Notes under the pieces: generated by a model | What the model was told of the DNA's origin: nothing | Seen by the model: only the letters and a program-made list of their open reading frames with translations | The model's database searches: none | Position numbers and translations under genes: made by a program | Part shown: positions 4,644 through 34,644 of the stretch, one piece after another | Position numbering within the stretch: position 1 is the stretch's first letter | How the letters are laid out: each line of letters opens with the position of its first letter | Origin: Promethearchaeota archaeon | GTDB taxonomy: Archaea; Asgardarchaeota; Thorarchaeia; Thorarchaeales; Thorarchaeaceae | Reading direction: 5' to 3' | DNA: 44,746 nucleotides | Assembly (NCBI GenBank): GCA_048939765.1 | Contig: JBHLPF010000026.1 | Location: 1 to 44,746, forward strand

Positions 4644-5044
4644 TTTTCTTCCTCCAAAAGGAGATACTCTCTCTGATGGCTAGCCATCATTGATACTTGA
4701 GGGTCATTGATTGTCCCCCATGTAAGGAAATTTTCATGTGGCATTTGCTAATATACATTGCGGACAATTAGTAGGTGTTCGCAAGCACACAAGAAGAGTG
4801 AAATAGTGTTCCCATGGCGCGAGCGCTTCTCTTTAGGCTGAGTGAAGAATTGATCAGGAATACTGGTTTTGGGATAAATGACTCAGATGCGGAGCATTCT
4901 TGGTGGGTCTTCCAATAGCCCACCCTTTTGGCTTCATAATTATACTCACAACCAAACTCTTAAATTAGTGCTATTTAGGCTCTGCTGTCTGTAGAGTGGA
5001 GTGGCGCCTTATCGGTATACTCCTTCACGTGAAGTGACCTGAAG

Positions 5045-6070
5045 ATGAAATTGAGAGACTATATCTTGAGACGGGTTCTGCTGTCGATTCCGGTAATAAT
5101 TGGAGTCTTGGCAATCACGTTTGTGCTGGCTTATGTTATTGGCAATCCTGTTGCAATGTATATCGATGAGAAGACTCCGTCTACTGCAATCCCAGGCATT
5201 ATGGCTCAACACGGGCTTGATCAGCCTATCTATATTCAATTCTTCTATTACCTTAGGGACCTGTTTCAAGGAGACTGGGGGTATTCTCGTACCTCTGGCG
5301 CAACTGTGATTGTCACAATCCAAAGGTTCTTCCCTGCCACCATTGAGCTCTCCATTTTCGCCATGGTCATATCTGTTGGTGTGGGCATTCCGCTGGGGAT
5401 AGTTTCGGCTACTCGAAAAGACAAACTTGCAGACCACGTGACTCGGGTCATTTCACTTCTTGGAGTGTCTATGCCTATATTCTGGTTTGCACTGATGCTC
5501 AAATACGTGCTCTATTACCAGTTCTTCATCTGGGGCTTGCCTCACATGCCTGATGGGTACAGATATTCATTCATCTATCTTCCTTATGATCCAATTACGA
5601 ACTTCATCCTCATTGACTCAATCATTACAGGTAACGGTGTACTGTTCTTTGATGCTCTCCTGCATATAGCAATGCCTGCCGTTTGCTTGGGCTATCTTGT
5701 CCTCGCTGTGATCACGAGGATGATGCGGTCAAGCATGCTTGAAGTCATGAAGGAGGACTACATAACTCTGGCACGGTCCAAGGGGCTGAGAGAGAGAGTG
5801 GTGATCTATCGGCATGCTTTGAGAAATGCGATGATCCCCACGATGACAGTCATAGGGCTTGCGTTCGGGGGCCTGATAACAGGAGCAGTGCTTACAGAAA
5901 CCATCTTCCAATGGCCGGGCCTTGGACGTTGGGCAACAACTGCGATACTCACATCAGACATACCAAGCATCAATGCATTCACACTCTTAGTCGCCTTCAT
6001 CTTTGTGACCGCCAACCTGATGGTCGACCTAATATACGGAGTGTTGGACCCAAGAATTCGATTTGGATAG
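5045..6070 (+). CDS. dppB: Peptide ABC permease, DppB/OppB type
   Basis: Motifs YILRR, GLDQPIYIQF, RFFPATIEL, EAA-like loop DYITLARSKGL, ETIFQWPGLG and LDPRIR. Confidence 0.95.
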   Translation: MKLRDYILRRVLLSIPVIIGVLAITFVLAYVIGNPVAMYIDEKTPSTAIPGIMAQHGLDQPIYIQFFYYLRDLFQGDWGYSRTSGATVIVTIQRFFPATIELSIFAMVISVGVGIPLGIVSATRKDKLADHVTRVISLLGVSMPIFWFALMLKYVLYYQFFIWGLPHMPDGYRYSFIYLPYDPITNFILIDSIITGNGVLFFDALLHIAMPAVCLGYLVLAVITRMMRSSMLEVMKEDYITLARSKGLRERVVIYRHALRNAMIPTMTVIGLAFGGLITGAVLTETIFQWPGLGRWATTAILTSDIPSINAFTLLVAFIFVTANLMVDLIYGVLDPRIRFG

Positions 6071-7390
6071 GTGATTTATGAGATGGAAGAAGAAACGTCA
6101 CAGAGCACTGTCACTGAAGTAAGGATTTCTGCGAGAGATGAATTCGAACCGCAAGGTCGATTTATTGGATTAATCCAAATTGCAGTAGCTATTTTTGGCA
6201 TTGGATTGAGTCTTGTACGACTCTCGCTGGAATTTCTGTCACCTGATACCAACCTTGGGCGCCAGATTGGAATGACTGTTCTAAATGTGGTACCCATTGT
6301 GTTTGCTGCAATGTACATGATATCTTCAGCCAATTCTGTGCGTAGGGCAGAATTCTGGAACTTCATTTCATTCGTCTATAGCAATATTATCGCCATGATT
6401 CTGAGCCTATTAATAGGTGATATAATGCTGCTATTGATCCTTGGAAATGTATTGAACATCGCCCTTATCATGAGACCATCGGTTCGAGAGTATTGGTGGG
6501 GGTTGTTCATGGAGGATATGGGTCCACGCATGAAGGAGACGCGATATAGCCTGTATCTCATCCGGAAGAGTCCGCTCGTCCTAGTCGGCATAGTGATTCT
6601 CGTGGGGTACGCTCTCCTCGGCATCTTTACTGAGTGGATTGCCCCATTTGGTCCAACTGAGAGAATCTGGACCGAGACTTTCTTGCCTCCTGGCAGTGTA
6701 AGTGCAGACGGGAGAATGCACTGGTGGGGTACGGGCCAGAGTGGTGGTGATATATTCAGCCGAGTTCTATGGGCCATCAGAGTCGATCTTCGCATAGCAT
6801 TCTCAGTGGTAGTAGTTGGAATTATCATTGGTACTTTTATTGGGGCCGCTGCAGGATATTTTGGTGGCGCGGTTGACGAAATCATGATGCGAATCACTGA
6901 TGTCTTCTTTGCATTTCCTGGGCTCATCCTTGCTATGGCCATCGTGGCAGCATTGGGCGCGAGGAACTTGGACAATATCGCGGTCGCGTTAATGATTGTG
7001 TGGTGGCCCGGTTATGCGCGCCTTGTACGAGGTCAGGTCTTGCTTGAACGGGAGAAGCTATATGTTGAGGCGGCAAGGTCAGTCGGTGCTTCTGACTTTA
7101 GGATCTTGGTGACGCATATGCTGCCCAACACAGTTCAACCAATGATAGTTTCGGCGACGCTAGATTTGGGAGGCGTACTGTTGACCGCCGCTGGACTCAG
7201 CTTCATTGGCTTCGGAGCCGAGGCCGGAAGTGCCGAGTGGGGTCTAATGATTGCCCAGGGGCAGAATCACTTCCAACTGTTCTGGCTGGTCTTCTTTCCA
7301 GGTATGGCAATCCTTCTTGCCTCATTAGCCTTCAATCTCATAGGCGATGGTGTTAGGGATATACTTGATCCCAAACTTAGAAGACGATGA
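6071..7390 (+). CDS. dppC: Peptide ABC permease, DppC/OppC type, with extra N-terminal TM domain
   Basis: Motifs HWWGTGQSGGDIFSRV, MRITDVFFAFP, YVEAARSVGAS and GDGVRDILDPK. About 150 extra N-terminal residues with 3-4 TM segments. Start may be ATG 6083. Confidence 0.93.
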   Translation: MIYEMEEETSQSTVTEVRISARDEFEPQGRFIGLIQIAVAIFGIGLSLVRLSLEFLSPDTNLGRQIGMTVLNVVPIVFAAMYMISSANSVRRAEFWNFISFVYSNIIAMILSLLIGDIMLLLILGNVLNIALIMRPSVREYWWGLFMEDMGPRMKETRYSLYLIRKSPLVLVGIVILVGYALLGIFTEWIAPFGPTERIWTETFLPPGSVSADGRMHWWGTGQSGGDIFSRVLWAIRVDLRIAFSVVVVGIIIGTFIGAAAGYFGGAVDEIMMRITDVFFAFPGLILAMAIVAALGARNLDNIAVALMIVWWPGYARLVRGQVLLEREKLYVEAARSVGASDFRILVTHMLPNTVQPMIVSATLDLGGVLLTAAGLSFIGFGAEAGSAEWGLMIAQGQNHFQLFWLVFFPGMAILLASLAFNLIGDGVRDILDPKLRRR

Positions 7391-7547
7391 GTTCGGGGGA
7401 CGAGACTATCCCAACCAGAGAAGCATACATTGGGTCAACTACTCGCTGGCAGAAATCAGTGATTGGAAACCGGAGTTGTCCACATGACTTACAGGAGCAG
7501 TGGCCAAGCAACAAAAACAGAGCGCTCACACCTAGGAGTGGTGCGCA

Positions 7548-7566
7548 AAGGAAACTACTTATATCA
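7548..7566 (+). promoter_or_regulatory. Putative internal archaeal promoter (BRE/TATA) upstream of the ATPase genes
   Basis: Purine-rich AAGGAAA followed by CTTATATC (7558-7565) within the ~250-bp gap between dppC and dppD. AGGAGG RBS at 7627-7632. Confidence 0.4.
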
Positions 7567-7642
7567 GATACTATGCGGAGCGAACAGAAATTGACAGTGA
7601 CCCAAGACTCCACTTATGTGCAAAACAGGAGGAAGATAGACA

Positions 7643-8869
7643 GTGGCTACATCTGAAAGCAAAACTGGAACTGACAATGACAACACATTGCTGGAAACGG
7701 ACCCTGATGTGGTTCTCGACATTCGCGACCTGAAGACATCCTTCTATACATACGAAGGTGTCGTGAGAGCACTCGATGGTGTCACGGTTGAACTTAGGCG
7801 TGGACAGACTCTCGCACTCGTTGGCGAAACAGGCTGTGGGAAGAGTGTGACCGCCAAGTCGATTATGCGTCTTGTTGAATCGCCGGGCAAAATCGAGCAT
7901 GGTCAGGTGATTTTCCAAGATCTAGATGCGGATGGCAATAGGCAATTCAGGGATCTCCTGAAATTGAGTGTCGATGAGATGATGCACATAAGAGGGAATA
8001 AGATCGCTATAGTCTTTCAGGATCCAGCGACATATCCGAATCCTGTCTTTCGCGTAGGTTCACAGATCGCCGAGGTAATCTCACTTCACCAAGATCAGGC
8101 TCGAGATGTTGTTGAGATGAAGATTCAGGAACTGGAGGATGCACTCGCTAAGAACCCAGCTGCACCTCAAGCCGAGGAAATACAGACAAGAATCGAGGAA
8201 TATCGTGCGCAACTAGACGATCCTCCTCCGCCAAGTTCTGGCGACATCAAGAAGGTGGCCAACAAGAAGGCTGTGGATATGCTAGCGCTTGTAAGAATGC
8301 CTTATGCTGAAGAAGTGGCCAAGCAGTACCCTCACGAGTTATCTGGTGGTATGAGGCAGAGAGCTCTGATCGCCATGGCATTGGCTTGCTCTCCGGAGAT
8401 ACTAATCTGTGACGAGGCTACCACTGCCCTGGATGTTACTGTGCAGGCCCAAGTGCTCAAACTCCTAAATGACCTCAAGAGCGAAATCGGAGCTTCTATA
8501 ATTATAATCACACACGACCTCGGTGTTGTAGCTGAGACTTGCACAAATGTTGCAGTGATGTACGCGGGCGTTGTTGTTGAATATGCCTCAACCGACGAGT
8601 TGTTCAGTGATCCCCTTCATCCGTATACTTTGGGTCTACTGAAAGCAATCCCGAAACTGACTGAGAAGGAAGACCGACTTCTTCAGATTCTAGGTACAGT
8701 GCCAAATCTAATTAATCCTCCAACAGGCTGTAGATTTCATCCGAGGTGTGAATTTGCTACGGGCATCTGTTCCGAGAAACGTCCTCCCAGAGAGGAGATG
8801 AAACCCGAGCACTGGGTGGAATGCTTCCACCCGCAGGGATCAATGATTGGCAGGGGTGGTAAACAATGA
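7643..8869 (+). CDS. dppD: Peptide ABC ATPase, DppD/OppD type, with helical insertion
   Basis: Walker A GETGCGKS, signature LSGGMRQR, Walker B ILICDE, and C-terminal oligo_HPY domain (HPYT...GCRFHPRC...C...C). Confidence 0.95.
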
Positions 8870-9897
8870 GCGCGAATGAGCCTCTTATCGAAGTTAGGAA
8901 TCTAAAGAAGTATTTCCCCCTCACCGGCGGCGTGTTCAGGAAAGTAATAGGTTATGTGCATGCTGTTGATGATGTCAGCTTCGACATCTACAAAGGTGAA
9001 ACACTGGGTCTTGTGGGTGAGTCTGGCTGTGGGAAAACCACGACCGGACGGACGGTTATCCGACTTATTCCTCCAACATCAGGCCAAATATTCTTTGAGG
9101 GTGAGGACATTACTGAACTCAAGGGTCGAGGATTGCGCAAGATACGCAATCGAATGGGAATCGTCTTCCAAGACCCAATGGCATCCCTCGATCCACGATC
9201 GACAACGAAGTCCGCAGTTGGTGAGCCTCTACTTGTAAATGGAATTGCAAGGGGATACCGACTCCGGACCATGGTGCTTGAACTGCTTGAGAAGGTTGGA
9301 CTCAGCGAGGACCACCTGAATAGGTTTCCCCATGAGTTCAGCGGTGGTCAGCGGCAACGGATTTGCATTGCCCGAGCACTGGCTCTAAGACCGAAATTCG
9401 TTGTAATGGATGAACCCACCTCAAGTACTGATGTTTCTGTTCAAGCTCAGACGCTGAATCTCATGAAGGACTTGCAAAAGGAGTTTGACCTGACATATTT
9501 GTTCATCTCTCACAACCTGAGCGTAGTCAAACACATGAGCGACAGAGTTGCTGTGATGTATCTAGGCCAAGTTGTGGAGCTGGTTCCAGGCGACATATTC
9601 AAGGAGGCATTGCACCCCTATTCCGCAGCACTAGTTTCAGCTGTGCCTGTGCCTGATCCAAAACTCCGAGGACGTGCACAAGTCCTTGCAGGAGAGGTGC
9701 CGAGTCCGATAAGTCCTCCGACTGGATGTCGTTTTCATCCAAGATGTAGGTTCGCCAAAGAGATATGTAGTACTGACTTGCCCCCTCTAGAGGATGTTGG
9801 AGATGGACATTTGGTTGCTTGTCACTTTGCGGGCGAATTGGATCTGGGCTACAAGGATGAAATCACGGTCAAGTCGACTGCTTCAGCTAGGGCGTAG
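8866..9897 (+). CDS. dppF: Peptide ABC ATPase, DppF/OppF type
   Basis: Motifs [26 protein letters not shown] and [12 protein letters not shown] overlap with the upstream gene. Confidence 0.95.
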
Positions 9898-10553: not shown

Positions 10554-11327
10554 CTAGATAGATGGCTTCACTGCTCGTCTGCCTATTCTTCTTCCTAGAA
10601 ACCTGCCACCATAGTAGAGAATACCTAGCACCACGGGCAAAAATGCGATGAGAAGTATCAGAGCCAAAGGGAAACTGAATTCTGCAAGAGGAAGGAAGAT
10701 GTAGTTCAAGAATTCTTGGTAAAATGTTGCTATCCCCAGAGCCAGTCCTTCCATGAACATGTTTCCCCACGGTGCAACGAGGATAGATACAACTCCTATG
10801 ACCGCAAGAGTCCTCTGCCATCTCACAATTGCTTGCCGTGAAATCTCAGCATAAGCCAGGTCTCCCAATTCTAAACGTTCAGACTCTTGCTCTCCAAGCC
10901 ATGTCAGGAAATTGTAGGACATTTCAACATTCCCTGAACCCCAAATTAGATAGACTGCGCCAACTATAACAAAGACAGCTTCCCCTGCCAAGATAAAGCT
11001 CTGGAAGAGTAGCAGTACGATGACGAGCGAACTGGCTCCCAAGATAAGCCCGCCAATCATTGCGCCTGCAAGGGTGTTTTCCATCATTACCTCCTGCAGT
11101 GCCTCTCCCCTTTTCGAGTGTTTCCTACGCACCAAGTTCTGCATGGCCCAATTATGAGAGATGCAACGTGTGTATTCAGTTTGGCCAGAGAGATCAACAC
11201 TGTCATTTCCAAATCTGTTATAGAACCATGTGAATAGACTATCCAGAGGGCGAATCCTCTTTTGCCAGTAGATAACCAACAATAAAGACAATGCTCCAAA
11301 GAGAATCAAAGCAAGCATCATATACAA
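10554..11327 (-). CDS. Hypothetical multi-pass membrane protein
   Basis: About 5-6 TM segments and a basic C-terminal tail; 2 bp from the upstream gene. Confidence 0.7.
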   Translation of the reverse strand: MYMMLALILFGALSLLLVIYWQKRIRPLDSLFTWFYNRFGNDSVDLSGQTEYTRCISHNWAMQNLVRRKHSKRGEALQEVMMENTLAGAMIGGLILGASSLVIVLLLFQSFILAGEAVFVIVGAVYLIWGSGNVEMSYNFLTWLGEQESERLELGDLAYAEISRQAIVRWQRTLAVIGVVSILVAPWGNMFMEGLALGIATFYQEFLNYIFLPLAEFSFPLALILLIAFLPVVLGILYYGGRFLGRRIGRRAVKPSI

Positions 11328-11329
11328 TC

Positions 11330-12169
11330 TTAATACTCTCCTCTCTGAGCCATTAGTCTATTAAATGTCCATAACCAAATATCAGTCATGAGAGCCCTGA
11401 ATGAATCTATATCAGGCTTATTCGAGCCAGCTACCAAGAGATGAACTCTTCCTCTAAGTCTTGATGGCTTTCTCTTCTCCACCGTTAGAGTGACATCATC
11501 CCCTGGAAGCTCCAAGTGAACCCCATAATCGTGGAAAAGCTTAGCAGGCTCTGAGAAGTCATAGTCAAACTCCTTGCAAGGTTTCGGATGAAGGAGTACC
11601 TTCGCCTCATTCAGCTCCGCGTGAATCTGAATCTTCTGGAAGGTATATCTTGGAACCAGCTTATTGTCCATTTCAGGTAGACCAAACCTTCTCAAGGTAG
11701 TCATACCCCTGTTGGCAAAACCACTGAAGTCTCCACCATTCCCCTCAATCGTGAGGTTTGGAGGATTGCCTCTGAACGCAATGATCGTTGACCCAAGGTC
11801 CCACTTCTTTACACCCTTGAGGTTTGAGCCATGCTCCTCATTTGCATCCCAGAAGCAATAAGGCATGGTAGTCATTGCCAGCATCTTATCCTTATCCCAC
11901 GGCTTTCGCTCCATAAGTGCCCATGTGTCGTCGTTCATCACATAAAGTGACATGCAGATTGGAGCAATATGTTGTGCATTGGCTTCGAGATACGCTTCCA
12001 GCCTCACCTGCCTAGATATCTGCTCGGTCAACTGGTCAAGCTGAGAGGTTGTCAAAACAACAGGTTGGTCTTCATCGAACAGGCTCTGCTGCTCGGGAGA
12101 GAAGCTAAACTGGACATTATGTTTCTCCGCAAACTCCTCAAATGTGCTTTGGGGCTGTCCAATCTTCAT
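11330..12169 (-). CDS. Hypothetical soluble protein
   Basis: ORF track gives 11330..12451, but that extension overlaps the carbamoyltransferase on the + strand. ATG 12169 (MKIGQPQ) is the plausible start. Confidence 0.65.
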   Translation of the reverse strand: MKIGQPQSTFEEFAEKHNVQFSFSPEQQSLFDEDQPVVLTTSQLDQLTEQISRQVRLEAYLEANAQHIAPICMSLYVMNDDTWALMERKPWDKDKMLAMTTMPYCFWDANEEHGSNLKGVKKWDLGSTIIAFRGNPPNLTIEGNGGDFSGFANRGMTTLRRFGLPEMDNKLVPRYTFQKIQIHAELNEAKVLLHPKPCKEFDYDFSEPAKLFHDYGVHLELPGDDVTLTVEKRKPSRLRGRVHLLVAGSNKPDIDSFRALMTDIWLWTFNRLMAQRGEY

Positions 12170-12305
12170 CTCTATCCAAGATTCTTGCGCTCGAGTTCCA
12201 TTCAAAATGCTTTCGCTGCTGGCATGTTGCTTAAAGAATCTGTGAATCTTGCTATCTCCCGACAGACCTAAAACCCAGTTGATGGGATTGATTCTTGTGA
12301 TTAAA

Positions 12306-13337
12306 ATGGTCGATCTATATGGCCGTGACTTGCTTTGCACGCAAGACTGGAGTATCGAGGAGCTTGAGAAGACCCTCGAACTTGCATTTGAGATGAAAAA
12401 CAATCGATATGACCATCCTTTGAACAATTGTCTGAACAGACGGACTTTCATGATGTTCTTCTACAATCCTTCTGTTCGCACTAGACAGTCATTCGAGGCC
12501 GCAGCCTCAGAGCTGGGTGGTCACGCTCAATTCCTGGAGCCTAAGTCCATGAGACTCAAGTCTGCGAAGACTGCAGGAGAGACCATTCAGGATGCAGCCG
12601 AAGTCATGAGTCGCTATGGTGTCGGTATAGGCATCAGAGTTCTAGAAACCGCTCTCGAATATTATGGGCAAGGCCATGAGATGCTTGAGGAGTATGCCAA
12701 GTACGCAAGCATTCCAATTGTTAGCATGGCTCATGATCGTTTCCACCCTTGTCAAGGACTAGCAGACGTCATGGGTTATAGGATGCACGGAGGTAAGGAT
12801 CTCAAAGGCAAGAAATTCCTCCAAGTTTGGGGAAAAGGCGCTCTGGTGAGGTCATGGTGCTCTGTTCAGGAGAGTGTTTTAATCAACACTCGATTTGGCA
12901 TGGATGTAACGCTTGCCTATCCAAAAGGCTACGATTTGGATCCTGAGGTCATGAAGTGGTGTGAGGAGAACGCCAATGCAGCTGGCGGCAGGTTCGAGAT
13001 TGTGCATGACCTCGAAGAAGGTTACGAGGGAGCTGATTTCGTTTATTCTCGGAACTGGATGACAGCTGGCTTCTATGAGGATATGATTAGGCAAGGTGTA
13101 GATGCAGCCAAAAAGAAGGAGATTGATGTCGCCGCAAAATATGATGACTGGATTACAACCAAGGAGTGGATGGCGAAGACAAATGATGCCTATTTTACTC
13201 ACTGTGGTCCTGTGGACAGGAACGCAGAAGTCACTGATGAGGTATGCGACAGCCCCAAGTCGATAGTATATGATGTGGCTGAGAATCGGCTTCATGTTCA
13301 GAAGGCGATTATGGCTCTGACAATGGGGAAGCAATAG
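12306..13337 (+). CDS. N-acylornithine-type (AOTCase/YgeW-like) carbamoyltransferase
   Basis: N-terminus MVDLYGRDLLCTQDWS. Carbamoyl-phosphate motif FYNPSVRTRQSFE. HPCQ, variant HCGPVDRN and AENRLHVQKA. No DxxxSMG. Confidence 0.88.
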   Translation: MVDLYGRDLLCTQDWSIEELEKTLELAFEMKNNRYDHPLNNCLNRRTFMMFFYNPSVRTRQSFEAAASELGGHAQFLEPKSMRLKSAKTAGETIQDAAEVMSRYGVGIGIRVLETALEYYGQGHEMLEEYAKYASIPIVSMAHDRFHPCQGLADVMGYRMHGGKDLKGKKFLQVWGKGALVRSWCSVQESVLINTRFGMDVTLAYPKGYDLDPEVMKWCEENANAAGGRFEIVHDLEEGYEGADFVYSRNWMTAGFYEDMIRQGVDAAKKKEIDVAAKYDDWITTKEWMAKTNDAYFTHCGPVDRNAEVTDEVCDSPKSIVYDVAENRLHVQKAIMALTMGKQ

Positions 13338-13582: not shown

Positions 13583-14491
13583 TTGGAGAACATCAAGTAT
13601 CCGATGACAAAGACCACTATTGCCCAGCTCACCGATGAACGAATGGAGGATTGGTTAAGAGTATATAATGAAGGCAAGGGAAACCTTCCTGATTTTCAAC
13701 CACTCATGCCGCGCGAGCTTAATGCCCTCATCAAACAAGGCGTTGTCAATCCTGAAAGAACGCTGCTAGGACTTGAGGATGGAATCGCCACCGCGGTTTC
13801 TCGTTATATCGGATCTGAAGATTCTCAGTCTGCCTTCATGTCTGATGTCAGCATCATGAGAGGAAGAACTCAGGGCCTACAGGGGATTATTGAATTCGTC
13901 ATGGCTTGGGCACGAGATATTCGAGCTAATCGCATTGCAGCCTGGACGCCCCTGTCAGCGATCAAGGTGCCTGACGTCCTCAGTGAGTACACATTTGAAG
14001 CTCGCAGAGTCCTGGTAGGTTTGAAGCTCCAGATTGATTCTGAGCTGTCAATAGATGAAACCCTGATTCATCGTGTGAGGGAGTGGGAAAGCAAGGGACC
14101 TGTTCAGCGACTCATAGCTCTCTTCGGTGGACTCTTCTCGAGGCCTCTTGATCTTCATGAATTGAGGGACGAGGCGGCTCACAAGTGGGAGCCACGATTC
14201 ACCTTGATTTCAAAGGATCTTGAAACCACACTGGCTGTCGCATATAGATCCGAGGCTAATAGACAATTAGGCTGGATTGACCTCACCCCATTGAGGGCAG
14301 GAGCAGCTTTGATTGAGGTACCTGACTCCAGTCTTATTTCTCATCTTGCTGCTCGATTATACCTAGACGGTGTGAAGGAAATTCGAACCGAAGTAGATGG
14401 TGACCTCTTGGAGAAACAGCCCTTCATTGATGCAGGTTTCGAAACCATCCGAACGCTCATGGAAATGGAACTGCAACTCAACTATGAGTAG
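13583..14491 (+). CDS. Divergent tandem-GNAT-like protein
   Basis: Two ~150-aa halves ending in GNAT-like patterns (VLSEYTFEARRVLVGLKL and PFIDAGFETIRTLMEMEL). The acetyl-CoA loop is not clearly conserved. Confidence 0.5.
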   Translation: MENIKYPMTKTTIAQLTDERMEDWLRVYNEGKGNLPDFQPLMPRELNALIKQGVVNPERTLLGLEDGIATAVSRYIGSEDSQSAFMSDVSIMRGRTQGLQGIIEFVMAWARDIRANRIAAWTPLSAIKVPDVLSEYTFEARRVLVGLKLQIDSELSIDETLIHRVREWESKGPVQRLIALFGGLFSRPLDLHELRDEAAHKWEPRFTLISKDLETTLAVAYRSEANRQLGWIDLTPLRAGAALIEVPDSSLISHLAARLYLDGVKEIRTEVDGDLLEKQPFIDAGFETIRTLMEMELQLNYE

Positions 14492-15058: not shown

Positions 15059-16255
15059 ATGGGAAAACCAAAGGTCTTCTACAGTGACGAACAAGCTCGT
15101 CCTGACTATAATATGCTGGATAAACTTGAGCATATATTCAACGAATTAAGACTTAATGAGGATATCAAACCAGGCGAAAAAGTCATGGTGAAGACTCATT
15201 TTGGTCAGTGGGGAAACACCCGATATCTGCGTCCTGCTTACGCACGCAAGATCGTTGATCTTGTCAGAGCCGCAGGTGGAGTGCCATTTTTGGCAGAAAC
15301 GTGTGGTCTCGGCTATGGTGAAGGAGGTGCCTATGGAGGGCGCTCTACGGCACCCGAGTATCTTGCTATGGCCGCATTAAATGGCTTCACTGAAGCTTCT
15401 GTTGGTGCTCCGCTTCTCATGGCAGACGGGTATTGGGGGACCGATGTATATAATGTCGAAGTTGATGGTGAGCACGTGAAGACTGTAGATGTTGCAGCCG
15501 CTCTTTATGACTGCGATAAGGTGATAGTGCTCACTCATGCTAAAGGACATGGATTGGGCGGCTTAGGAGGCACCCTCAAGAATCTCGGCATTGGACTTGT
15601 AGGGAAGCGGAGCAAGGCAGCGATGCACTTCTTGGGAGATCTCAAGATCGACCCGGAGAAATGCCTAGGGCCTGAGTGTTCCAAATGCCTAAAGGTCTGT
15701 CCAACCCGATGCATTACTATGAATGAAAAAGCAACTCTCGATAAGGCGAGATGCATCGCATGCTATCACTGTGTTGATGTGTGCAGGAAAGTTGAGGCAA
15801 AAGCTGCAACCATGTCATGGCGACCCAACCACGAACAGCCACCCTATTTCGTCGAGAACTCATTAGGCGTGATAAATTCTATCGGGGCTGATAGATTCTA
15901 CTACATCAACCTCGCCATTGACATCAGTGACAAATGCGACTGTTGGAACGTAGGGGCACCGCTGCTTGTGCATGATATTGGAATATTCGGCTCAAGAGAT
16001 CCCCTTGCCATTGACCAAGCCACTCTGCAAGCAATCAAGGATGCGCCGGCAAATCCTGACTCCCTAGCTGGCGATGTTGAGTGCGGGGCAGATAAGTTCG
16101 CAGCGGTGCACGCCTGCAAAGATCCTGAAACAGGAGAGATTCTAGAGCTCGCCGAGGACCAGCTGGCTCACGCTGAGAAGATGGGGCTTGGCAGTAGAGA
16201 ATATGAGTTGGTGACCATCACAAAGGAACCACCAAAGAAACCAGGTGCAACATAG
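15059..16255 (+). CDS. DUF362-domain Fe-S protein with 2x[4Fe-4S] ferredoxin insert
   Basis: Motifs VKTHFGQWGN, LTHAKGH, GGTLKNLGIG, CSKCLKVCP, CIACYHCVDVC, CDC and DIGIFGSRDPLAIDQA. Confidence 0.88.
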   Translation: MGKPKVFYSDEQARPDYNMLDKLEHIFNELRLNEDIKPGEKVMVKTHFGQWGNTRYLRPAYARKIVDLVRAAGGVPFLAETCGLGYGEGGAYGGRSTAPEYLAMAALNGFTEASVGAPLLMADGYWGTDVYNVEVDGEHVKTVDVAAALYDCDKVIVLTHAKGHGLGGLGGTLKNLGIGLVGKRSKAAMHFLGDLKIDPEKCLGPECSKCLKVCPTRCITMNEKATLDKARCIACYHCVDVCRKVEAKAATMSWRPNHEQPPYFVENSLGVINSIGADRFYYINLAIDISDKCDCWNVGAPLLVHDIGIFGSRDPLAIDQATLQAIKDAPANPDSLAGDVECGADKFAAVHACKDPETGEILELAEDQLAHAEKMGLGSREYELVTITKEPPKKPGAT

Positions 16256-16257
16256 GA

Positions 16258-16782
16258 GTGACTGAAATGGTTCCTGAATGGTTTAGAGCGAAGGTTATTC
16301 ATGCACACGAGAATATGAGAACACATCTGCATCATGTGTTGGAGGATCTGACGAACGAAGAGCTAATCAAACAGGTGACTAGCGAGGAGTACTCTAGGTC
16401 AATCGCCGGAATCGTGATGCACATTGGGACTGCTGAAACCTACTGGTTCCATAAGGCGAACAACTCGATAGGGCCTCCCGTCGTAGCAGACACATTTGAA
16501 GAGGTACTCGCTCGGATAAAGGAGAACACAGAGAAGATTACGAAGATTGTCCGCGAGTGTCCTGAGGAACAGCTTCGCATCATTTCTCCAAACGAAGGTG
16601 GGCCATCTATAGCTTGGGCGGTACTGAGGACTTCTCAGCATGGGATATACCATGCAGGGCAAATTGCCAAAATACGTCGAATGATTGGTGCAAAGGAATT
16701 GCAGCCTGCTACTGAGAACCTGTGGGGGAACGCAGTTGACTCTCCTCTGGAAATAATGAGAGCCCTAATGGATGAATGCTAG
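16258..16782 (+). CDS. DinB-family four-helix-bundle metalloprotein
   Basis: SIAGIVMHIGTAETYW and HGIYHAGQI supply the DinB His triad. AGGAG precedes the GTG start. Confidence 0.85.
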   Translation: MTEMVPEWFRAKVIHAHENMRTHLHHVLEDLTNEELIKQVTSEEYSRSIAGIVMHIGTAETYWFHKANNSIGPPVVADTFEEVLARIKENTEKITKIVRECPEEQLRIISPNEGGPSIAWAVLRTSQHGIYHAGQIAKIRRMIGAKELQPATENLWGNAVDSPLEIMRALMDEC

Positions 16783-16869
16783 ACTGCGTATTCATCTATA
16801 CAGCCATCCAAGATTGACTATTAAGTCGTAGCGCTAAACCCCACGGGAAGTGACCTGAACAGGGGTGTT

Positions 16870-17925
16870 ATGCTACTGCCACTATTTCCACCAGGCAACA
16901 TTGTTCGAGACATCATTCTGCTTTTGGATGGTGCCATTGTCTTCTACTCATTTCTCCTGGGGATTGTCTTGCTCGGCCAGTGGTACAGGAGTCCATTTCG
17001 AAAGGCAGTCGATGTGAAGCTTGCATGGGGTCTCTTCTTCATTGGCATGGTTGGAAATACCTCGGCGTTTATGCTTGCTGACTTCTTCTATACAGATGAT
17101 CCGCTTAACATCTTCTGGGTCAAGATAGGTTATATGTGCCTAATTCTTGCTCTAGTCGCCTTCTTCTCAACAATAGAGAGAATGCTGCCATATCGACTTC
17201 ACCACGCTTTTTCCATCACAGGTCTAGCTTCCGCAGGACTTACCATAGTTTCTCCGCGCGATTATATTGAAGCCGTCGCCTTGTTCATCTCAATTGTTAC
17301 TCTGATTGGAGTTATGCTCTTCCTCACTTTTTCGATACGAAATACCAGTGGTGCAGTTCGAAGAAGCATTGGTCAAATCGTTGCAGGATTTCTCATAGGA
17401 TTTGTGGGATTCTTGGGCAGGAGCGATGTTTCCTATTATGCCCTTGGGGAATTGATATACGCGTTTGGTGCAGCACTCATGGTAATAGGGCTCATCATAT
17501 TTGGCTATGCCTTGATCATGTCACCAGCTCTGGATGAACTTGACTGGCGCCAACAATTGGTTGAGCTGTATATCATCCAAGAAGGTGGCCTGTTAGTCTT
17601 TCACCATCACTTCAAAGAAGTCCAAGACATCGACCAAGTCCTTACTGCTGCGGGAATCTCTGGTGTCCAATCTCTCTTTCAGGAAATAACTAGGAGCGAA
17701 GAAGGACTGAATGTGGTCTCAATCGGAGATTATGAGATTCTCTTCGCACATGGTGGGAGTTTCTCATCAGTTCTGATCTCGCGCAAGGCCTACCACATTC
17801 TGCTTTCTAAGGTTCAAGAATTCACTGACAAATTTGATCTCATCTTTGGTCCTATCATTGAGAGATTCGAAGGAAGTCTTCGTGAATTCAGTTCAGTGCA
17901 TGAGCTTGTAGCGTCTGTCTTCTAG
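16870..17925 (+). CDS. Seven-TM membrane protein fused to a C-terminal longin-like domain
   Basis: Seven hydrophobic helices (residues ~15-220), then LVELYIIQEGGLLVFHHHF...DQVLTAAGISGVQSLFQEI...FTDKFDLIF, the pattern of Asgard longin-like domains. Confidence 0.75.
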   Translation: MLLPLFPPGNIVRDIILLLDGAIVFYSFLLGIVLLGQWYRSPFRKAVDVKLAWGLFFIGMVGNTSAFMLADFFYTDDPLNIFWVKIGYMCLILALVAFFSTIERMLPYRLHHAFSITGLASAGLTIVSPRDYIEAVALFISIVTLIGVMLFLTFSIRNTSGAVRRSIGQIVAGFLIGFVGFLGRSDVSYYALGELIYAFGAALMVIGLIIFGYALIMSPALDELDWRQQLVELYIIQEGGLLVFHHHFKEVQDIDQVLTAAGISGVQSLFQEITRSEEGLNVVSIGDYEILFAHGGSFSSVLISRKAYHILLSKVQEFTDKFDLIFGPIIERFEGSLREFSSVHELVASVF

Positions 17926-19206: not shown

Positions 19207-20433
19207 ATGGGACTACGTGACAGAGCAACGGTTGCTATATATCTGGTTTATGGACTTCAATCAACTGGAATGGCAATCAGCTGGCAATTTGCCACATTGT
19301 TTGTCAAGCATGAATTAGGCGCTCCCGATTTTCTTACTCTTACCGTTGTCTACGCAACTCCGTCCTTCGTTACCATGGCTGCCGTAAATCTATGGGGAGC
19401 ATTCTCAGACCGTTCGAGGGCACGAAAGCCCTTCATGGTTGTTGGTTTTCTGGGTTATGCCTATACCTTCGTGCTCTATTCATTCGTAACCACTAGCCTT
19501 CAATTTCTGGCTATCGGAGTCCTTGGAGCTATGCTCTCCTCTGCATCATTGCCAGCCGGCACCGCTCATCTAACAACGGGAACAAAGAGCAAGGGAGAGC
19601 GAATGGGATATTTCATCTCGGTTCAATCAGCGGGTTGGTTCGCGGGGGCACTGCTCAGTGGATTGCTCTATGATGCAATTGGAATGTTCACACTCTATAG
19701 AATTGCGGCCATATCTTGCGTTCTAGCCACAGGCATAGCCATTGTGTTCGTTCAAGACCTGCCAGTAAAAGAAGTGTCACAAGAGATGAAGACTAGCTTC
19801 CTCACTCTAGTACGTAAGCCAGGAATTGCGCGCCTCTCTCTTCTTGTGGCGCTGAGTCAAATAGGCATAGGCGCCGTCTCATTTATGCATGCAATTATCA
19901 TCATCGACGAGCTCGGTGGATTAGCACTATATGTTGGCCTTGCAAACTCGTTTGCGACGCTGATCGCAGTAGTTGTCACTGGCTATATTGGAAAGGTCGT
20001 AGACCGCAGAGGTCCGGTTATGATACTGGTTCTAGCGATGCTATCTTACACAGTCTTTGGATCTGCATTTGCTCTGGTTCGTGATCCCATAACTGCCACA
20101 ATAATGTGGGCGCTCCCAATTTATCCACTGGCATCCACAGCAGCTTTTGCATTGGCATCAATGAGATCAAGTGAAGATGAGCGAGGGCGAGCGATGTCAT
20201 TGATTAGTGGAGCACAAAACGCCGGCGCCGCAATTGGCCCAGTTGTTGGTGGGCTCTTCGCCCAATTCGTCTTTGGTATGGTACAACCAGTTGCATGGAT
20301 CATGATGTTGTTCAATCTTGCAGCGCTGGCTTTGGCTATATCACTGCCTGGAGTTGTGGGTTCGGGTCTTATCTCAATGGAACCAATTTCCATGGCTTCA
20401 GAGCAAAATCATGCAATTGCGCCGGGCAGGTAG
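19207..20433 (+). CDS. MFS transporter
   Basis: About 12 TM segments; motifs WGAFSDRSRARK, GKVVDRRGP, ERGRAMS and AIGPVVGG. Confidence 0.9.
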   Translation: MGLRDRATVAIYLVYGLQSTGMAISWQFATLFVKHELGAPDFLTLTVVYATPSFVTMAAVNLWGAFSDRSRARKPFMVVGFLGYAYTFVLYSFVTTSLQFLAIGVLGAMLSSASLPAGTAHLTTGTKSKGERMGYFISVQSAGWFAGALLSGLLYDAIGMFTLYRIAAISCVLATGIAIVFVQDLPVKEVSQEMKTSFLTLVRKPGIARLSLLVALSQIGIGAVSFMHAIIIIDELGGLALYVGLANSFATLIAVVVTGYIGKVVDRRGPVMILVLAMLSYTVFGSAFALVRDPITATIMWALPIYPLASTAAFALASMRSSEDERGRAMSLISGAQNAGAAIGPVVGGLFAQFVFGMVQPVAWIMMLFNLAALALAISLPGVVGSGLISMEPISMASEQNHAIAPGR

Positions 20434-28075: not shown

Positions 28076-29062
28076 TCAGAGTGCATAGCATGCCACGAAG
28101 TGGCCTGGTGACACCTCTACTAGGTTGGGTTCTTCCGTCTTGCAGTATTCTTCATTATATTCCTGGCATCTTGGCTTGAATCGGCAGCCATCAGGCAGGT
28201 CAATAGGAGTTGGTGTTTCTCCCGGGAGAAGTATCCTATCTCTTTCCTCGGTCGGGTCTGGTATTGGAATATTGGAAACAAGCGCCTTTGTATATGGATG
28301 GATAGGGTCTTGGATCACAGTTTCCATTGGACCCATCTCCGCAATGCGTCCCAAATACATGACAATGCAATAGTCACCGATGTATCTAGCTTGGGCGAGA
28401 TCATGTGTTATGAAGATGTAAGTTAATCCATGTTCCTTCTGCAATGCGCCCATTAGATTCATGATTTCAGTGCGAATACTTGCATCAAGCATAGATACAG
28501 GCTCATCAGCTATGATGAGTTTGGGTTTGAGGATAAGCGAACGTGCAACGGCCACACGTTGAAGCTGACCTCCACTGAGTTCGTGCGTATATCGCCGAGC
28601 GAAGTCTTTTGCAGGGACAAGCCTCACATCGTCAAGTACTTCCAATACTCTTTCACGAACGACCTCCTCATCTTCTTCAAGCGAGTGTATTTCCAGACCT
28701 TCACCCACTAGTCGCTCAACTGTGAGTCTTGGGTCAAGGACCTCGAATGGATTCTGGAAAATCAACTGCATTCTTAATCGCAGATCCCGAAGCTCCTCAC
28801 GAGTCAAATCATAGATACTCTTGCCCTCGAACTCAACGGATCCTGCAGTAGGCTCGACAAGGCGGAGGATAGTTCTTGCAAGTGTCGTTTTCCCACAACC
28901 GCTCTCTCCAACGATGCACACAGAACCCCCATCTTGGACATCAAAGCTTACTCCATCAACTGCTTTGACATATCTTGTTTCGCTGAAGAAGGAAAACAGG
29001 CCCGTGCGAACGGGGAACCATTTCTTCAGGTCCCGGACACTGAGAATAGACTTTGAGCTCAC
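28076..29062 (-). CDS. oppF: Peptide ABC ATPase, OppF type
   Basis: Motifs [26 protein letters not shown] and GCRFKPRC. Confidence 0.95.
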   Translation of the reverse strand: MSSKSILSVRDLKKWFPVRTGLFSFFSETRYVKAVDGVSFDVQDGGSVCIVGESGCGKTTLARTILRLVEPTAGSVEFEGKSIYDLTREELRDLRLRMQLIFQNPFEVLDPRLTVERLVGEGLEIHSLEEDEEVVRERVLEVLDDVRLVPAKDFARRYTHELSGGQLQRVAVARSLILKPKLIIADEPVSMLDASIRTEIMNLMGALQKEHGLTYIFITHDLAQARYIGDYCIVMYLGRIAEMGPMETVIQDPIHPYTKALVSNIPIPDPTEERDRILLPGETPTPIDLPDGCRFKPRCQEYNEEYCKTEEPNLVEVSPGHFVACYAL

Positions 29063-30039
29063 TGGATATCACCACCGAAATCAAGCTGCCCTGCGAAGTG
29101 GCATCTGGCGAAATGTCCTGGTTCAAGCTCTCTGAACTCAGGAAATTCTGCCTTGCATATGTCTTGGGCATATGGACATCTAGGATGGAATTTGCAGCCG
29201 GGTGGCGGATAAAGCAGATTGGGCGGCGAGCCAGGTATGAACTCGAGATGACGCTTTGGTCCCTTGATGCTTGGGAACGCCCCTATCAGTTTGTAGGTGT
29301 AGGGATGGAGTGACTCCTTGAACACTGCCTTTGTTGTTCCTAGCTCCACTATGTTGCCGGCGTACATGATTCCAGTGTTTGTGCAGTTCTCAGCCACGAC
29401 TGAGAGATCATGAGTTATGAAGAGAACTGCAAGGTCGTATTTCTTCTGCAGCTTTCTAAGCAGGTCGAGAATCTTATTCTGCACCACAACATCAAGCGCT
29501 GTCACTGGTTCATCAGCTATGATTAGCTTAGGATCACATGCTAGAGCCTGGGCAATAATGGCGCGCTGCAACATCCCGCCACTGAACTCGTGAGGATAGT
29601 CCATGACTCGTTTGGGTTCCAGACCGACTTCGTCAAAGAGCGCCTTGACTTTATCCGAAGCTTCCTCTTCTGAAACCTCGGTTTTCTCACGCATTACTTC
29701 GATTATCTGAGCCCCAATGCGTAAGACGGGATTGAATGCGTTCATTGCATATTGAAATACGATTGATGCACTTCTCCATCGAATTCTCCTCATCTCTTCC
29801 GCAGTCTTCTCGATGAGGTCATCTCCGTCCAATAGAATTTGTCCGCCAACAATCTTGCCGTTCTCTGGAAGTATTCGTAGGATGCTGTAAGCTGTTGTGG
29901 TCTTTCCACATCCCGATTCTCCTGCGAGGCCCAATGTTTCTTGTCGGTCAATCTCCAGTGATACATTCTCGACAGCTCGTACTGGCTTCCCTCCAAGGTA
30001 GTAGTGAGTGGTCAAATCGCGAAGCTCCAGGACGGGCAC
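29059..30039 (-). CDS. oppD: Peptide ABC ATPase, OppD type
   Basis: Motifs [26 protein letters not shown] and GCKFHPRC. Confidence 0.95.
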   Translation of the reverse strand: MPVLELRDLTTHYYLGGKPVRAVENVSLEIDRQETLGLAGESGCGKTTTAYSILRILPENGKIVGGQILLDGDDLIEKTAEEMRRIRWRSASIVFQYAMNAFNPVLRIGAQIIEVMREKTEVSEEEASDKVKALFDEVGLEPKRVMDYPHEFSGGMLQRAIIAQALACDPKLIIADEPVTALDVVVQNKILDLLRKLQKKYDLAVLFITHDLSVVAENCTNTGIMYAGNIVELGTTKAVFKESLHPYTYKLIGAFPSIKGPKRHLEFIPGSPPNLLYPPPGCKFHPRCPYAQDICKAEFPEFRELEPGHFARCHFAGQLDFGGDIQ

Positions 30040-30040
30040 T

Positions 30041-31585: not shown

Positions 31586-31598
31586 AGCTTTCCTCCTC

Positions 31599-32591
31599 CT
31601 AATATCGTATCCGCGGATCTAGGTACAGATAGATGAGATCTGCGGCAAGGTTTGCAATAACAGTCACGGCGGTGTAGAATAGGAATATTCCCTGCAAAAC
31701 CGGATAGTCCTTAGAAAGAACCGAGTTATAGGTCAGCAAGCCCAATCCTGACCAGCTAAAAACGAACTCGGTCATTATGGCGCCGCCAATAAGGTATGGA
31801 ATGTTTACCGCAATCACGCTGACCATAGGCAACATGGCGTTGCGCATGGCATGACCATAGAGTATCGTACGCTCTTTGAGACCCTTTGCACGAGCGGCTA
31901 GCATATAGTCCTGAGTAAACACATCAAGGACAGTATCGCGCATTATCAAGTAGAAGCCCCCGATGAACGACAAAGTGAGTACAAGACATGGGCCAGCCAT
32001 GTGCCAGGCGTAGTCACGGATATAGTCCAAGAAATTAGCATGAATGTATCCCCGCGTAATGGTTCCTGCGATAGGGATTAGATTAAAGTAAAACCCGAAG
32101 AATAGTAACATTAGCAAGCCTATCCAGAACACAGGGATGGAGTAGGCTACCAGAAAGAACACAGTTGAACCCGTGTCAAGTTTGCTATCTCTCCGTGCAG
32201 CAGCAATGACTCCAAAGAACATGCCGATTATGGTCGATATGATCAGAGAAACTCCCATCAACACGAACGTGTTCATGAATCTGTAGCCAAAGATTGTTTC
32301 AAAGACCGGTTCGCCGAAGTGTGAAAACGAGGTCCCCAAGTCCCCTTGGAGGAGATTGGCAATGTATAATACAAACTGCTCAAAGAGGGGTCTATCAAGT
32401 CCGAATCTGGCTACTATTGTTTGGCGAAGCTCAGGGGGCATGTTTTCACGTATAAGCGAAGCCCTGGGATCCCCGGGCATGATTCGAAATATGAAGAAAT
32501 TCACTGTAATTATGACAAACAAGATCAATATTGTCTGTCCTAATCGTTGTAGAATATAGCGTCTTGTTCCTATTGATTTTCGGGCAGCCAA
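31599..32591 (-). CDS. oppB: Peptide ABC permease, OppB type
   Basis: Motifs YILQRL, MPGDP, GLDRPLFEQF, DYMLAARAKGL and LDPRIRY. Confidence 0.95.
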   Translation of the reverse strand: MAARKSIGTRRYILQRLGQTILILFVIITVNFFIFRIMPGDPRASLIRENMPPELRQTIVARFGLDRPLFEQFVLYIANLLQGDLGTSFSHFGEPVFETIFGYRFMNTFVLMGVSLIISTIIGMFFGVIAAARRDSKLDTGSTVFFLVAYSIPVFWIGLLMLLFFGFYFNLIPIAGTITRGYIHANFLDYIRDYAWHMAGPCLVLTLSFIGGFYLIMRDTVLDVFTQDYMLAARAKGLKERTILYGHAMRNAMLPMVSVIAVNIPYLIGGAIMTEFVFSWSGLGLLTYNSVLSKDYPVLQGIFLFYTAVTVIANLAADLIYLYLDPRIRY

Positions 32592-32682
32592 TACGAATCA
32601 CCTGCTGTTTTCTTCATAGTTTGACTCATTGTGGAAATTGTCCTCTAAAGGGTATCGGATAGCGCGTGTAGAGTTTGAGGGC

Positions 32683-32726
32683 GAAGAAAAATGAGAAAGA
32701 AAGAGCAAACATGCTGCTCTTCCTTT
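32683..32726 (-). terminator. Hairpin plus U-tract between oppA and oppB
   Basis: 12-bp stem AAAGGAAGAGCA/UGCUCUUUCUUU on the minus strand (one G-U pair), followed by CUCAUUUUUCUUC. Confidence 0.6.
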
Positions 32727-32736
32727 TCTTTGGATT

Positions 32737-34506: not shown

Positions 34507-34644
34507 GATATTCTCTCCACTCCTGCGTGTCACCGGAAAGAGCAAGCCTTCCCAGTAATGCAGTGGAAAACAAGTGGAAACCACGTGTTTAAGGATTTCG
34601 AACATTCCAATCCTCAATATACTTTCGTTCTGCGTAAGATAATC

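Follow-up and report, generated by a model that had tools for sequence, protein, structure and literature searches.

The window analysed here, by computation throughout, is a 44,746 nucleotide (nt) stretch, contig JBHLPF010000026.1 of GenBank assembly GCA_048939765.1. It comes from a member of the Thorarchaeota, and the Asgard origin implied in an initial annotation of this DNA, made from the letters alone, holds. An open reading frame (ORF) at 16870..17925 encodes a 351 amino acid (aa) protein with seven predicted transmembrane (TM) helices followed by a C-terminal longin-fold domain, termed here the 7TM-longin protein. This protein may offer a small GTPase a longin platform that is fixed in the membrane, a reading we put at even chances. 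At the level of the family, coupling to small GTPases has real support, from gene linkage and co-diversification in Lokiarchaeia and from fusion and proximity in the source genome.

In the proposed arrangement the seven helices would span the membrane, and a 12-residue linker would hold the cytoplasmic longin domain near the inner face of the bundle. The longin platform would serve as the membrane docking site of a small GTPase of the Ras superfamily (Rab-, Arf- or Rag-like) and possibly switch it, as a scaffold for a guanine nucleotide exchange factor (GEF) or a GTPase-activating protein (GAP). The platform is probably a dimer, formed via the conserved face of its first helix (alpha1). The seven-helix module would set the site of action and may relay an intramembrane signal. 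Dimerisation, GTPase binding by this protein and the direction of regulation are presumed.

The gene and its parts are as follows, where A1 is an alignment of 37 close homologues and A2 an alignment of 100 diverse members.
16870..17925, plus strand: 7TM-longin gene, 351 aa and stop codon, ATG start (ORF listing, translation, homologues).
16862..16867, plus strand: GGGGTG, Shine-Dalgarno-like, 3–8 nt 5′ of the ATG (direct sequence reading).
16900..17520, plus strand: predicted seven-helix membrane module, residues 11–217 (AlphaFold2 model, hydropathy, charge count).
17521..17556, plus strand: juxtamembrane linker SPALDELDWRQQ, residues 218–229 (A1, A2).
17557..17922, plus strand: predicted cytoplasmic longin-fold domain, residues 230–351 (domain model, Foldseek, VIA-align, conservation).
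17623..17694, plus strand: longin helix alpha1, residues 252–275, motif DQVLTAAGISGVQSLFQEIT (A1, A2).

By the size of its family and its strong full-length conservation the gene is real, and the GGGGTG sequence may serve as its ribosome-binding site. In the AlphaFold2 model of the full protein (37 homologues in the input; predicted local distance difference test, pLDDT, 80.1; predicted template modelling score, pTM, 0.73) the helices occupy residues 11–40 (TM1), 49–73 (TM2), 79–105 (TM3), 113–127 (TM4), 130–158 (TM5), 162–192 (TM6) and 194–217 (TM7). Kyte-Doolittle hydropathy displays four strong and three weaker hydrophobic segments at positions that coincide with the modelled helices. Model and hydropathy agree with the initial annotation, which had read seven TM helices and then a domain starting at about 17530 (residue 221).

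The predicted topology is N-terminus out, C-terminus in. Lysine and arginine residues number 7 in the loops modelled inside and 2 in those modelled outside, with means across the 37 orthologues of 7.0 and 1.6, respectively. A cytoplasmic C-terminus, as first proposed, is favoured because positive charge lies on the inner loops and because the same longin domain stands behind 12-TM relatives of the major facilitator superfamily (MFS). Since these MFS-fused relatives carry the domain after a 12-helix MFS part with a cytoplasmic C-terminus, the longin domain of the 7TM-longin protein would face the cytoplasm as well. The outer loops of the modelled membrane module have only 2–10 residues, the N-terminal tail has 10, and no ectodomain is present in the model. 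The earlier suggestion of a membrane sensor for a ligand is therefore conjecture, and the near-absence of exposed loops in the model argues against sensing of an external ligand by the seven-helix module. An intramembrane signal or pure anchoring fits the module equally well.

Pfam and NCBIfam searches at E ≤ 10 give no kinase, cyclase or other catalogued domain in the 7TM-longin protein, in line with the missing kinase or cyclase output domain reported at the outset. For residues 1–227 Pfam yields no 7tm family match, the sole row being MerC at E = 3.2, and a profile search of PDB sequences gives only chance rows (E about 2.5). In the ESM Atlas, residues 1–222 are structurally nearest to the prokaryotic 7TMR-DISM_7TM and HisKA_7TM modules (TM-scores 0.68–0.72), and HlyIII is also among the neighbours. 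PDB structural rows for the membrane module include ADGRL3, CD97, designed GPCR-like folds, ACER3, GABA-B, Ste2 and rhodopsins with Z scores of 11–14.9, values that, by the aligner's own warning, unrelated helical bundles generally reach. The modelled seven-helix module is receptor-shaped; the arrangement is shared, and homology to receptor families goes beyond the evidence.

Two groups of seven-helix proteins invite comparison. The bacterial 7TMR-DISM_7TM (PF07695) and HisKA_7TM (PF16927) proteins follow the same logic of seven helices and then a cytoplasmic output. However, the 7TM-longin protein lacks an extracellular sensor domain, and its output is a longin domain rather than a kinase, cyclase or HD domain. 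G protein-coupled receptors (GPCRs) share the seven helices and the N-out/C-in orientation, and the best row is the adhesion GPCR ADGRL3 (Z = 14.9 over 200 residues, root-mean-square deviation 3.6, 5% identity). But the identity is 5–10%, there is no family match, and the proposed partner is a monomeric small GTPase reached via a built-in domain. We know of no heterotrimeric G proteins in these archaea. The description of the protein as GPCR-like thus comes down to an analogy, with a generic seven-helix arrangement and no 7tm membership by sequence.

The linker between the two modules is among the best conserved parts of the protein. Its E223, D225 and W226 are invariant in A1, and across the members of A2 retention is 88% for E223 and 97% for W226. 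The linker column entropy, 0.84 bits, is among the lowest of the whole protein. In the AlphaFold2 model the distance from TM7 to strand beta1 is 12 residues. So short a linker obliges the modelled longin domain to lie directly on the inner side of the bundle.

Secondary structure assigned by DSSP on the AlphaFold2 model consists of beta1 (230–237), beta2 (241–247), alpha1 (252–275), beta3 (282–285), beta4 (288–294), beta5 (298–304), alpha2 (309–330) and alpha3 (341–350). The order beta-beta-alpha-beta-beta-beta-alpha-alpha, with a five-stranded sheet between helices, is displayed by the full-protein model and by a model of the domain alone (residues 221–351, 100 diverse relatives, pLDDT 90, pTM 0.84). 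A Foldseek search of PDB with the longin domain gives 95 matches at E ≤ 1e-3, and the top rows listed are all longin or roadblock domains. The best rows are Mon1-Ccz1 (1.1e-5) and TRAPP Trs23 (TM-score 0.71); others are AP sigma subunits, LAMTORs, VAMP7 and MglB. VIA-align gives Z scores of 12.7 for Fuzzy/CPLANE, 12.3 for VAMP7 and 12.1 for Sec22. These top matches align 114–122 residues, model residues 9–131, and include both C-terminal helices. Roadblocks (MK-D1 Roadblock3, MglB and a Thorarchaeota roadblock) give Z scores of 10.1–11.6, and their alignment extends only from about model residue 5 to 110. Judged on the models, the C-terminal domain is a longin fold by element order and coverage, the gap in Z to the roadblocks being only about one unit. 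DSSP, Foldseek and VIA-align (Z = 12–12.7) thus bear out the longin-like pattern seen in the initial annotation.

Sequence profiles are largely silent on this fold. None of the Pfam thresholds for Longin (PF13774), Sybindin (PF04099), Fuz_longin_1 (PF19036) or Robl_LC7 (PF03259) is reached by the domain, and no family appears at E ≤ 10. Sub-threshold Sybindin matches are found in 4 of 100 relatives (best 5e-4) and a Fuz_longin_1 match in 1 of 100 (1.5e-4). One soluble longin-type paralogue in the source genome also gives a sub-threshold longin Pfam match.

Helix alpha1 is the most conserved element of the domain, with an entropy of 0.84 as against 1.68 for alpha2. Seven of its residues, A260, A261, G262, G265, Q267, L269 and E272, are invariant in A1. 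In roadblock/longin platforms the alpha1 helix is the dimer and GTPase-facing side. Conservation peaks in the linker, alpha1, strands beta4–beta5 and the inner loop 5–6; the two C-terminal helices vary most, and the last residue, F351, is retained in 98% of the diverse members.

The 7TM-longin protein belongs to a large family. A word-indexed search yields more than 133 full-length relatives, nearly all of them Thorarchaeota "hypothetical proteins", and an exhaustive search of 1.84 billion representatives yields 551 clusters at 50% identity (E ≤ 1e-3). Among the best 150 of the 551 representatives, about 96 have 6–7 detected helices and 13 are MFS-longin fusions, the short ones being fragment-like; the helix counter is crude and gives 6 for the query protein itself. 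In these 150 the longin domain is always at the extreme C-terminus of a polytopic membrane module, 7TM or less often MFS. The family profile matches 298 of 301 genomes of the phylum, with full-length matches in at least nine Asgard families and frequently several copies per genome. A scan of the genome collection with A1 reached just the Thorarchaeota-type subfamily. The source genome has a single full-length copy. Of the 30 nearest ESM Atlas clusters by features, 27 are unnamed; in the best three, archaea make up at least 96%, for the most part Promethearchaeota. A match to 7TMR-DISM_7TM (PF07695), at about 1e-3, is seen in two of 100 relatives and is absent from the query protein.

The MFS-longin subfamily carries the same C-terminal longin domain behind a 10–12-helix MFS part. 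Its members have 496–579 aa and occur in Thorarchaeota and Lokiarchaeia (P0195, P0213, P0221, P0222, P0231, P0234, P0247, P0248, P0251, P0255, P0260 and P0268; loci L081, L087, L088, L090, L091 and L096). In L081 and L091 a soluble longin-type ORF is found beside or near the MFS-longin gene.

The link to GTPases is seen in Lokiarchaeia relatives. Forty loci were fetched around full-length members from other Asgard families, with crude gene calls and helix counts. About 20 of the 40 contain tandem pairs, in which a gene of about 380 aa is followed 3–50 nt later by one of about 362 aa. Lokiarchaeia relatives as a rule come in such tandem A/B pairs, and some Thorarchaeota have tandems specific to their lineage. 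In 8 of the 40 loci a small GTPase is immediately adjacent, either co-directional at 95–200 nt or divergent at 260–400 nt. All 10 adjacent ORFs that were checked are GTPases by Pfam (Ras E-values from 1e-27 to 1e-48, one Arf-like, one Gtr1/RagA-like). The eight GTPase-adjacent loci all lie in one family, f9, which is Lokiarchaeota/Promethearchaeota by source names, and the NCBI label of the GTPase is Rab family GTPase. Genomes of f9 contain 58–87 Ras-family matches per 3.2–5.0 Mb, about 2% of genes. A flanking GTPase is expected by chance at about 4% per locus and is observed at 8 of 20 f9 loci, statistics that overstate the association in that related genomes are not independent.

In a tree of the membrane proteins, clade A holds the first gene of the pair (Shimodaira-Hasegawa-like approximate likelihood ratio test, SH-aLRT, 97), clade B the second (95), and a Thorarchaeota clade includes the window protein (100); this tree and that of the GTPases come from quick searches and not from finished, careful ones. 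GTPase adjacency is found in three separate pair sub-lineages and in a divergent locus, L094. In the GTPase tree, seven of the adjacent GTPases, all Rab-like, group in a single clade (SH-aLRT 97), and the branching within it parallels that of clades A and B. Two genomes of one genus hold different sub-lineages of the module, GTPase and pair, and thus the module was duplicated as a unit.

A reciprocal test in 41 f9 genomes started from the GTPases. Seven of the 20 best non-training matches to the subfamily profile adjoin 7TM-longin genes, compared with 1 of 20 lower-scoring Rab-like controls (p = 0.022, one-sided Fisher), and 5 of 8 are adjacent among matches of at least 249 bits. Scores of this profile are continuous with those of generic Rab-like GTPases and give no clean subfamily cut. 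In an alignment of seven module GTPases from L065–L079 (A3), GGKxDL replaces NKxD and WDFxGE/D replaces the Rab WDTAGQE, the catalytic Gln being absent. The sequences end in I or L without a cysteine and hence carry no prenylation signal.

Several observations on these loci stand apart from the linkage itself. In five module GTPases the P-loop is in frame upstream of the first ATG/GTG/TTG, with an apparent ATA or ATT start (L065:3851-4387, minus strand; L066:280-819, minus; L070:9417-9968, plus; L074:9410-9964, minus; L077:8141-8674, plus). The L075 orthologue has ATG at the position of the ATT in L074; standard gene callers would truncate such GTPases. In L079, two proteins of 517–521 aa (L079:3505-5070 and L079:8314-9867) flank the GTPase and A/B module. 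They display a Ras-family domain at about residues 168–335, and their N-terminal part is roadblock-like in sequence; Pfam reports the GTPase part alone. At L094:7001-9059 a divergent 312 aa member lies directly downstream of a 314 aa Gtr1/RagA-like GTPase (Pfam E = 9e-24); no other neighbour of Rag type was encountered.

The source genome, which has roughly 40 small GTPases, also joins this longin type to GTPases. A 648 aa protein is a fusion of an Arf/Roc/Ras-like GTPase domain with the same longin type. In the GTPase tree the fused domain groups as sister to the Arf-like GTPase next to a Lokiarchaeia pair, with an SH-aLRT of 97. Of 17 longin-type frames, 6 are fused to a GTPase or lie within 2.5 kb of one, where about 6% is expected. 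The same longin type is present in three winged-helix proteins and in several proteins with unknown partners.

Unfused and differently combined paralogues are found in this genome as well. At C16:32409-33780 (L010, L014) a 239 aa 7TM-only paralogue (minus strand, 33061-33780) is situated tail to tail with a 205 aa soluble longin (plus strand, 32409-33026). The two are 35 nt apart and look like an unfused version of both modules. On the contig of the window (C13), 4–7 kb past the window end and about 31 kb past the 7TM-longin gene, a tight four-gene operon occupies C13:48971-51957 on the minus strand, with gaps of 91, 94 and 12 nt.
C13:51424-51957, minus strand: Rab-like GTPase, 177 aa.
C13:51072-51332, minus strand: 86 aa protein with 3 Cys.
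C13:50450-50977, minus strand: longin-type protein, 175 aa.
C13:48971-50437, minus strand: membrane protein, 488 aa, about 13 helices.
The 13-TM protein was considered as a relative of the 7TM module and rejected, as it gives no match at E ≤ 1 to the 7TM profile. The operon GTPase has two close paralogues (C54, C48), each also near longin-type ORFs.

A number of points weigh against a GTPase platform. To the overstated adjacency statistics and the quick trees is added that many Lokiarchaeia pairs have no adjacent GTPase. At the 7TM-longin gene itself there is no GTPase or roadblock neighbour, and the nearest GTPase is about 33 kb off. Among 40 loci of its own clade (377 ORFs), a search for GTPase, roadblock or longin neighbours gives one small GTPase within 5 kb, in 1 of 40. 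A search of the source genome for an orthologue of the Lokiarchaeia module GTPase was negative, the top match scoring 131 bits as compared with at least 245 for subfamily members, and the genome has one gene copy and not an A/B pair. Winged-helix domains and MFS transporters, too, occur in fusion with this longin type; the longin domain is thus a general module, and action on a GTPase is not obligatory. A shared fold by itself is no proof of function. The GTPase signalling proposed in the initial annotation therefore stands in part: the Lokiarchaeia adjacency and co-diversification and the longin-GTPase fusion of its own genome speak for it, and the missing linked GTPase and module-GTPase orthologue speak against it.

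The eukaryotic systems closest to a longin platform for a GTPase are the longin-dimer Rab GEFs, i.e. the TRAPP core Bet5/Trs23 (TRAPPC1/C4, Sybindin), Mon1-Ccz1 and Fuzzy-Inturned (CPLANE). The fold is shared over the whole length of the domain, with Z scores of 12.7 for Fuzzy, 11.8 for TRAPPC, 11.3 for Trs23 and 10.9–11.2 for Mon1/Ccz1 and Foldseek E-values of 1e-5 to 4e-5. The likeness extends to the paralogue pairs of the relatives, which lie beside a dedicated Rab-like GTPase as a heterodimeric platform would predict. However, the Rab GEFs are soluble or peripheral complex subunits, whereas here the longin domain ends an integral membrane protein with seven helices, and a GEF role would be by analogy.

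Roadblock/longin domains hold a GTPase at the membrane in Ragulator/LAMTOR-Rag with SLC38A9 and in the SRX domain of SRalpha with SRbeta (in part from PMC10933270 and PMC5696360). LAMTOR2, LAMTOR3 and SRX domains match the longin domain at Z = 9.1–10.2. Further likenesses are the Gtr1/RagA-like GTPase beside the relative in L094 and, around the 7TM-longin gene, the genes for peptide uptake and amino-acid enzymes. Ragulator is lipid-anchored via LAMTOR1 and SLC38A9 is separate, whereas anchor and platform are in one polypeptide here. To our knowledge these archaea have no target of rapamycin (TOR) pathway. MglB/roadblock-MglA pairs and Asgard roadblocks (PDB 3t1r, 6hjm, 7f8m, 9jue) belong to the same superfamily, with Z scores 1.1–2.6 below the best longin match. 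The MglB/roadblock platforms are dimeric and regulate a Ras-like GTPase encoded nearby. But roadblocks are small, soluble and without the two C-terminal helices, and the 7TM-longin protein has no Robl_LC7 match.

Related domain combinations are on record. Tran et al. catalogued Asgard fusions of GTPase, roadblock and longin domains, with no mention of a membrane-spanning form, and found MK-D1 GTPase genes generally outside operons with roadblock/longin genes. Liu et al. described about 130 roadblock/longin asCOGs and, in Asgard archaea, NPRL2-like longins fused to two-component signalling domains. Dey et al. placed longins in the PAS/GAF superfamily and raised the question of whether operons reveal the targets of Loki GTPases. 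In a 2026 preprint, Asgard "7TM proteins" form one cluster and "TRAPPC2-like longins" another. The literature searched contains no description of a 7TM-longin fusion, although the supplementary asCOG tables of Liu et al. might list it; the family is uncharacterised, as the initial annotation had supposed.

Asgard archaea have dozens of Rab-, Arf- and Rag-like GTPases, and the module GTPases aligned here lack the prenylation cysteine of eukaryotic Rabs. For the membrane recruitment and regulation of such GTPases the 7TM-longin family offers a testable answer, an integral membrane protein with its own longin platform, present in nearly all sampled Asgard genomes and, in Lokiarchaeia, genetically coupled to a single GTPase subfamily. 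Confirmation of binding and regulation would mean that archaeal relatives of eukaryotes, too, connect a membrane protein with a small GTPase in the eukaryotic style.

A more ambitious version, which we hold to be speculative and rather improbable, is an undescribed receptor-type device. The seven-helix module would change its shape upon a membrane or external cue, and the longin platform would directly recruit and switch a lipid-free Rab/Arf/Rag-like GTPase. The platform would be homodimeric here and an A/B heterodimer in Lokiarchaeia. If true, these archaea would have, in a single polypeptide, a counterpart of receptor-GEF-small GTPase signalling or of Ragulator together with a transceptor, and the device would be a candidate forerunner of the way in which eukaryotic membranes acquired GTPase identity.

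In the surroundings of the 7TM-longin gene, one run consists of a DUF362/4Fe-4S gene, a DinB gene and the 7TM-longin gene, followed, on either strand, by an ABC (ATP-binding cassette) ATPase, an acyltransferase, an MFS gene and a dihydrodipicolinate synthase (DHDPS)-family gene.
15059..16255, plus strand: DUF362 and 4Fe-4S gene, first of the DUF362-DinB-7TM-longin run (Pfam; same order in L002; 18 of 40 loci).
16258..16782, plus strand: DinB/MST-family gene, the directly upstream neighbour (Pfam DinB_2, MST; present in 18 of 40 loci).
19207..20433, plus strand: MFS transporter (Pfam MFS_1; syntenic orthologue in close Thorarchaeota).
2748-9897 and 28076-34617 of the window: a full Opp/Dpp-type peptide ABC gene set in each of the two intervals, made up of SBP_bac_5, a pair of permeases and a pair of oligo_HPY-tailed ATPases; both sets are of an ordinary kind and give the region its metabolic character.

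The run is conserved among Thorarchaeota to about 50% identity and dissolves below that. The window also encodes a class-III aminotransferase, an M20 peptidase, a beta-lactamase-family hydrolase, citrate synthase and glyceraldehyde-3-phosphate dehydrogenase (GAPDH). For what was initially described as an amino-acid catabolic region, a neighbourhood of peptide and amino-acid uptake and utilisation is the better name; its synteny is local to the lineage and does not amount to a family-wide association. Nutrient sensing, which the initial annotation took from the neighbours, is weakly grounded because the synteny is confined to close Thorarchaeota, and it stays an analogy.

This neighbourhood bears on the best placed of the alternatives, which we nonetheless consider unlikely. 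The longin domain would be a regulatory or oligomerisation tail, and the membrane module a transporter, channel or transceptor whose solute is related to peptides or amino acids; the tail would gate the module or pair it with another protein, without a GTPase. The conserved Thorarchaeota gene order, in which the 7TM-longin gene stands together with MFS, ABC ATPase and Opp-type peptide transporter genes, is consistent with this, as are the 13 of the 150 best representatives that carry the same domain behind a 9–12-TM MFS part and the lack of a GTPase linked to this orthologue. But the synteny decays below about 50% identity, and the MFS of the window is unrelated to the MFS-longin fusions. It is 57–69% identical to the MFS neighbours in L001 and L002 and unrelated to the neighbour in L004; as an unfused counterpart of the fusions it was ruled out, there being no specific similarity. 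The seven-helix part matches no transporter family, its nearest structural neighbours are sensor modules and receptors, and a transporter tail leaves the co-diversifying Lokiarchaeia GTPase unexplained.

Improbable, to a greater degree, is that the longin domain acts as a PAS/GAF-like intracellular sensor feeding varied outputs (membrane module, winged helix, GTPase), with the GTPase as one output and not the target. The placement of longins in the PAS/GAF superfamily (Dey et al.) and the fusions of NPRL2-like longins to two-component domains (Liu et al.) are compatible with such a sensor, and the source genome has this longin type in three fusions with a winged helix, in a fusion with a GTPase and in others with several unknown modules. 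However, no ligand pocket or ligand-binding family is detected, the best-conserved surface is alpha1 plus the linker and no cavity, and the top structural matches are all protein-binding longins and roadblocks.

The three winged-helix proteins (C55:29022-30904, C86:53770-54687; L011, L012, L015) have an N-terminal longin and a C-terminal winged helix, HTH_47/TrmB-like at sub-threshold level, and two of the three genes are in tandem. Their composition suggests longin-controlled transcription factors.

Very improbable is a trafficking role like that of a SNARE or a coat, with the membrane-anchored longin serving vesicle formation or fusion in the manner of Sec22, Ykt6, VAMP7 or AP sigma. Structural matches to VAMP7, Sec22 and AP sigma do rank with the best (Z = 11–12.3). 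However, longin SNAREs have an N-terminal longin, a SNARE coiled coil and a single C-terminal anchor, a layout that the 7TM-longin protein lacks: the order is reversed with the membrane part first and the longin last, the protein has no coiled coil, SNARE motif or single tail anchor, and no Pfam Longin or Synaptobrevin match is found. No SNARE domains are known in Lokiarchaeum (Dey et al.).

Proteins of the PAQR family have the N-terminus inside, the opposite of the charge bias here. Least probable of all, a PAQR/alkaline ceramidase-type intramembrane hydrolase with the longin tail as accessory is suggested by Adiponectin receptor 1, which heads the Foldseek rows of the full model (E = 5e-3), by ACER3 at Z = 12.5 and by HlyIII among the Atlas structural neighbours, but these scores are within the range any helical bundle reaches, and the sole His-rich column of the membrane part is residue 112 (73%), in a cytoplasmic loop, with no invariant His and no conserved His/Asp zinc site.

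Upstream of the DUF362 gene, the window contains ORFs of 257, 373 and 151 aa without a Pfam match at E ≤ 1e-4 and one of 302 aa without a match at E ≤ 0.1 (10554-12451, minus strand; 12879-13334, minus; 13583-14491, plus). Two of these four belong to the conserved Thorarchaeota synteny upstream of DUF362.

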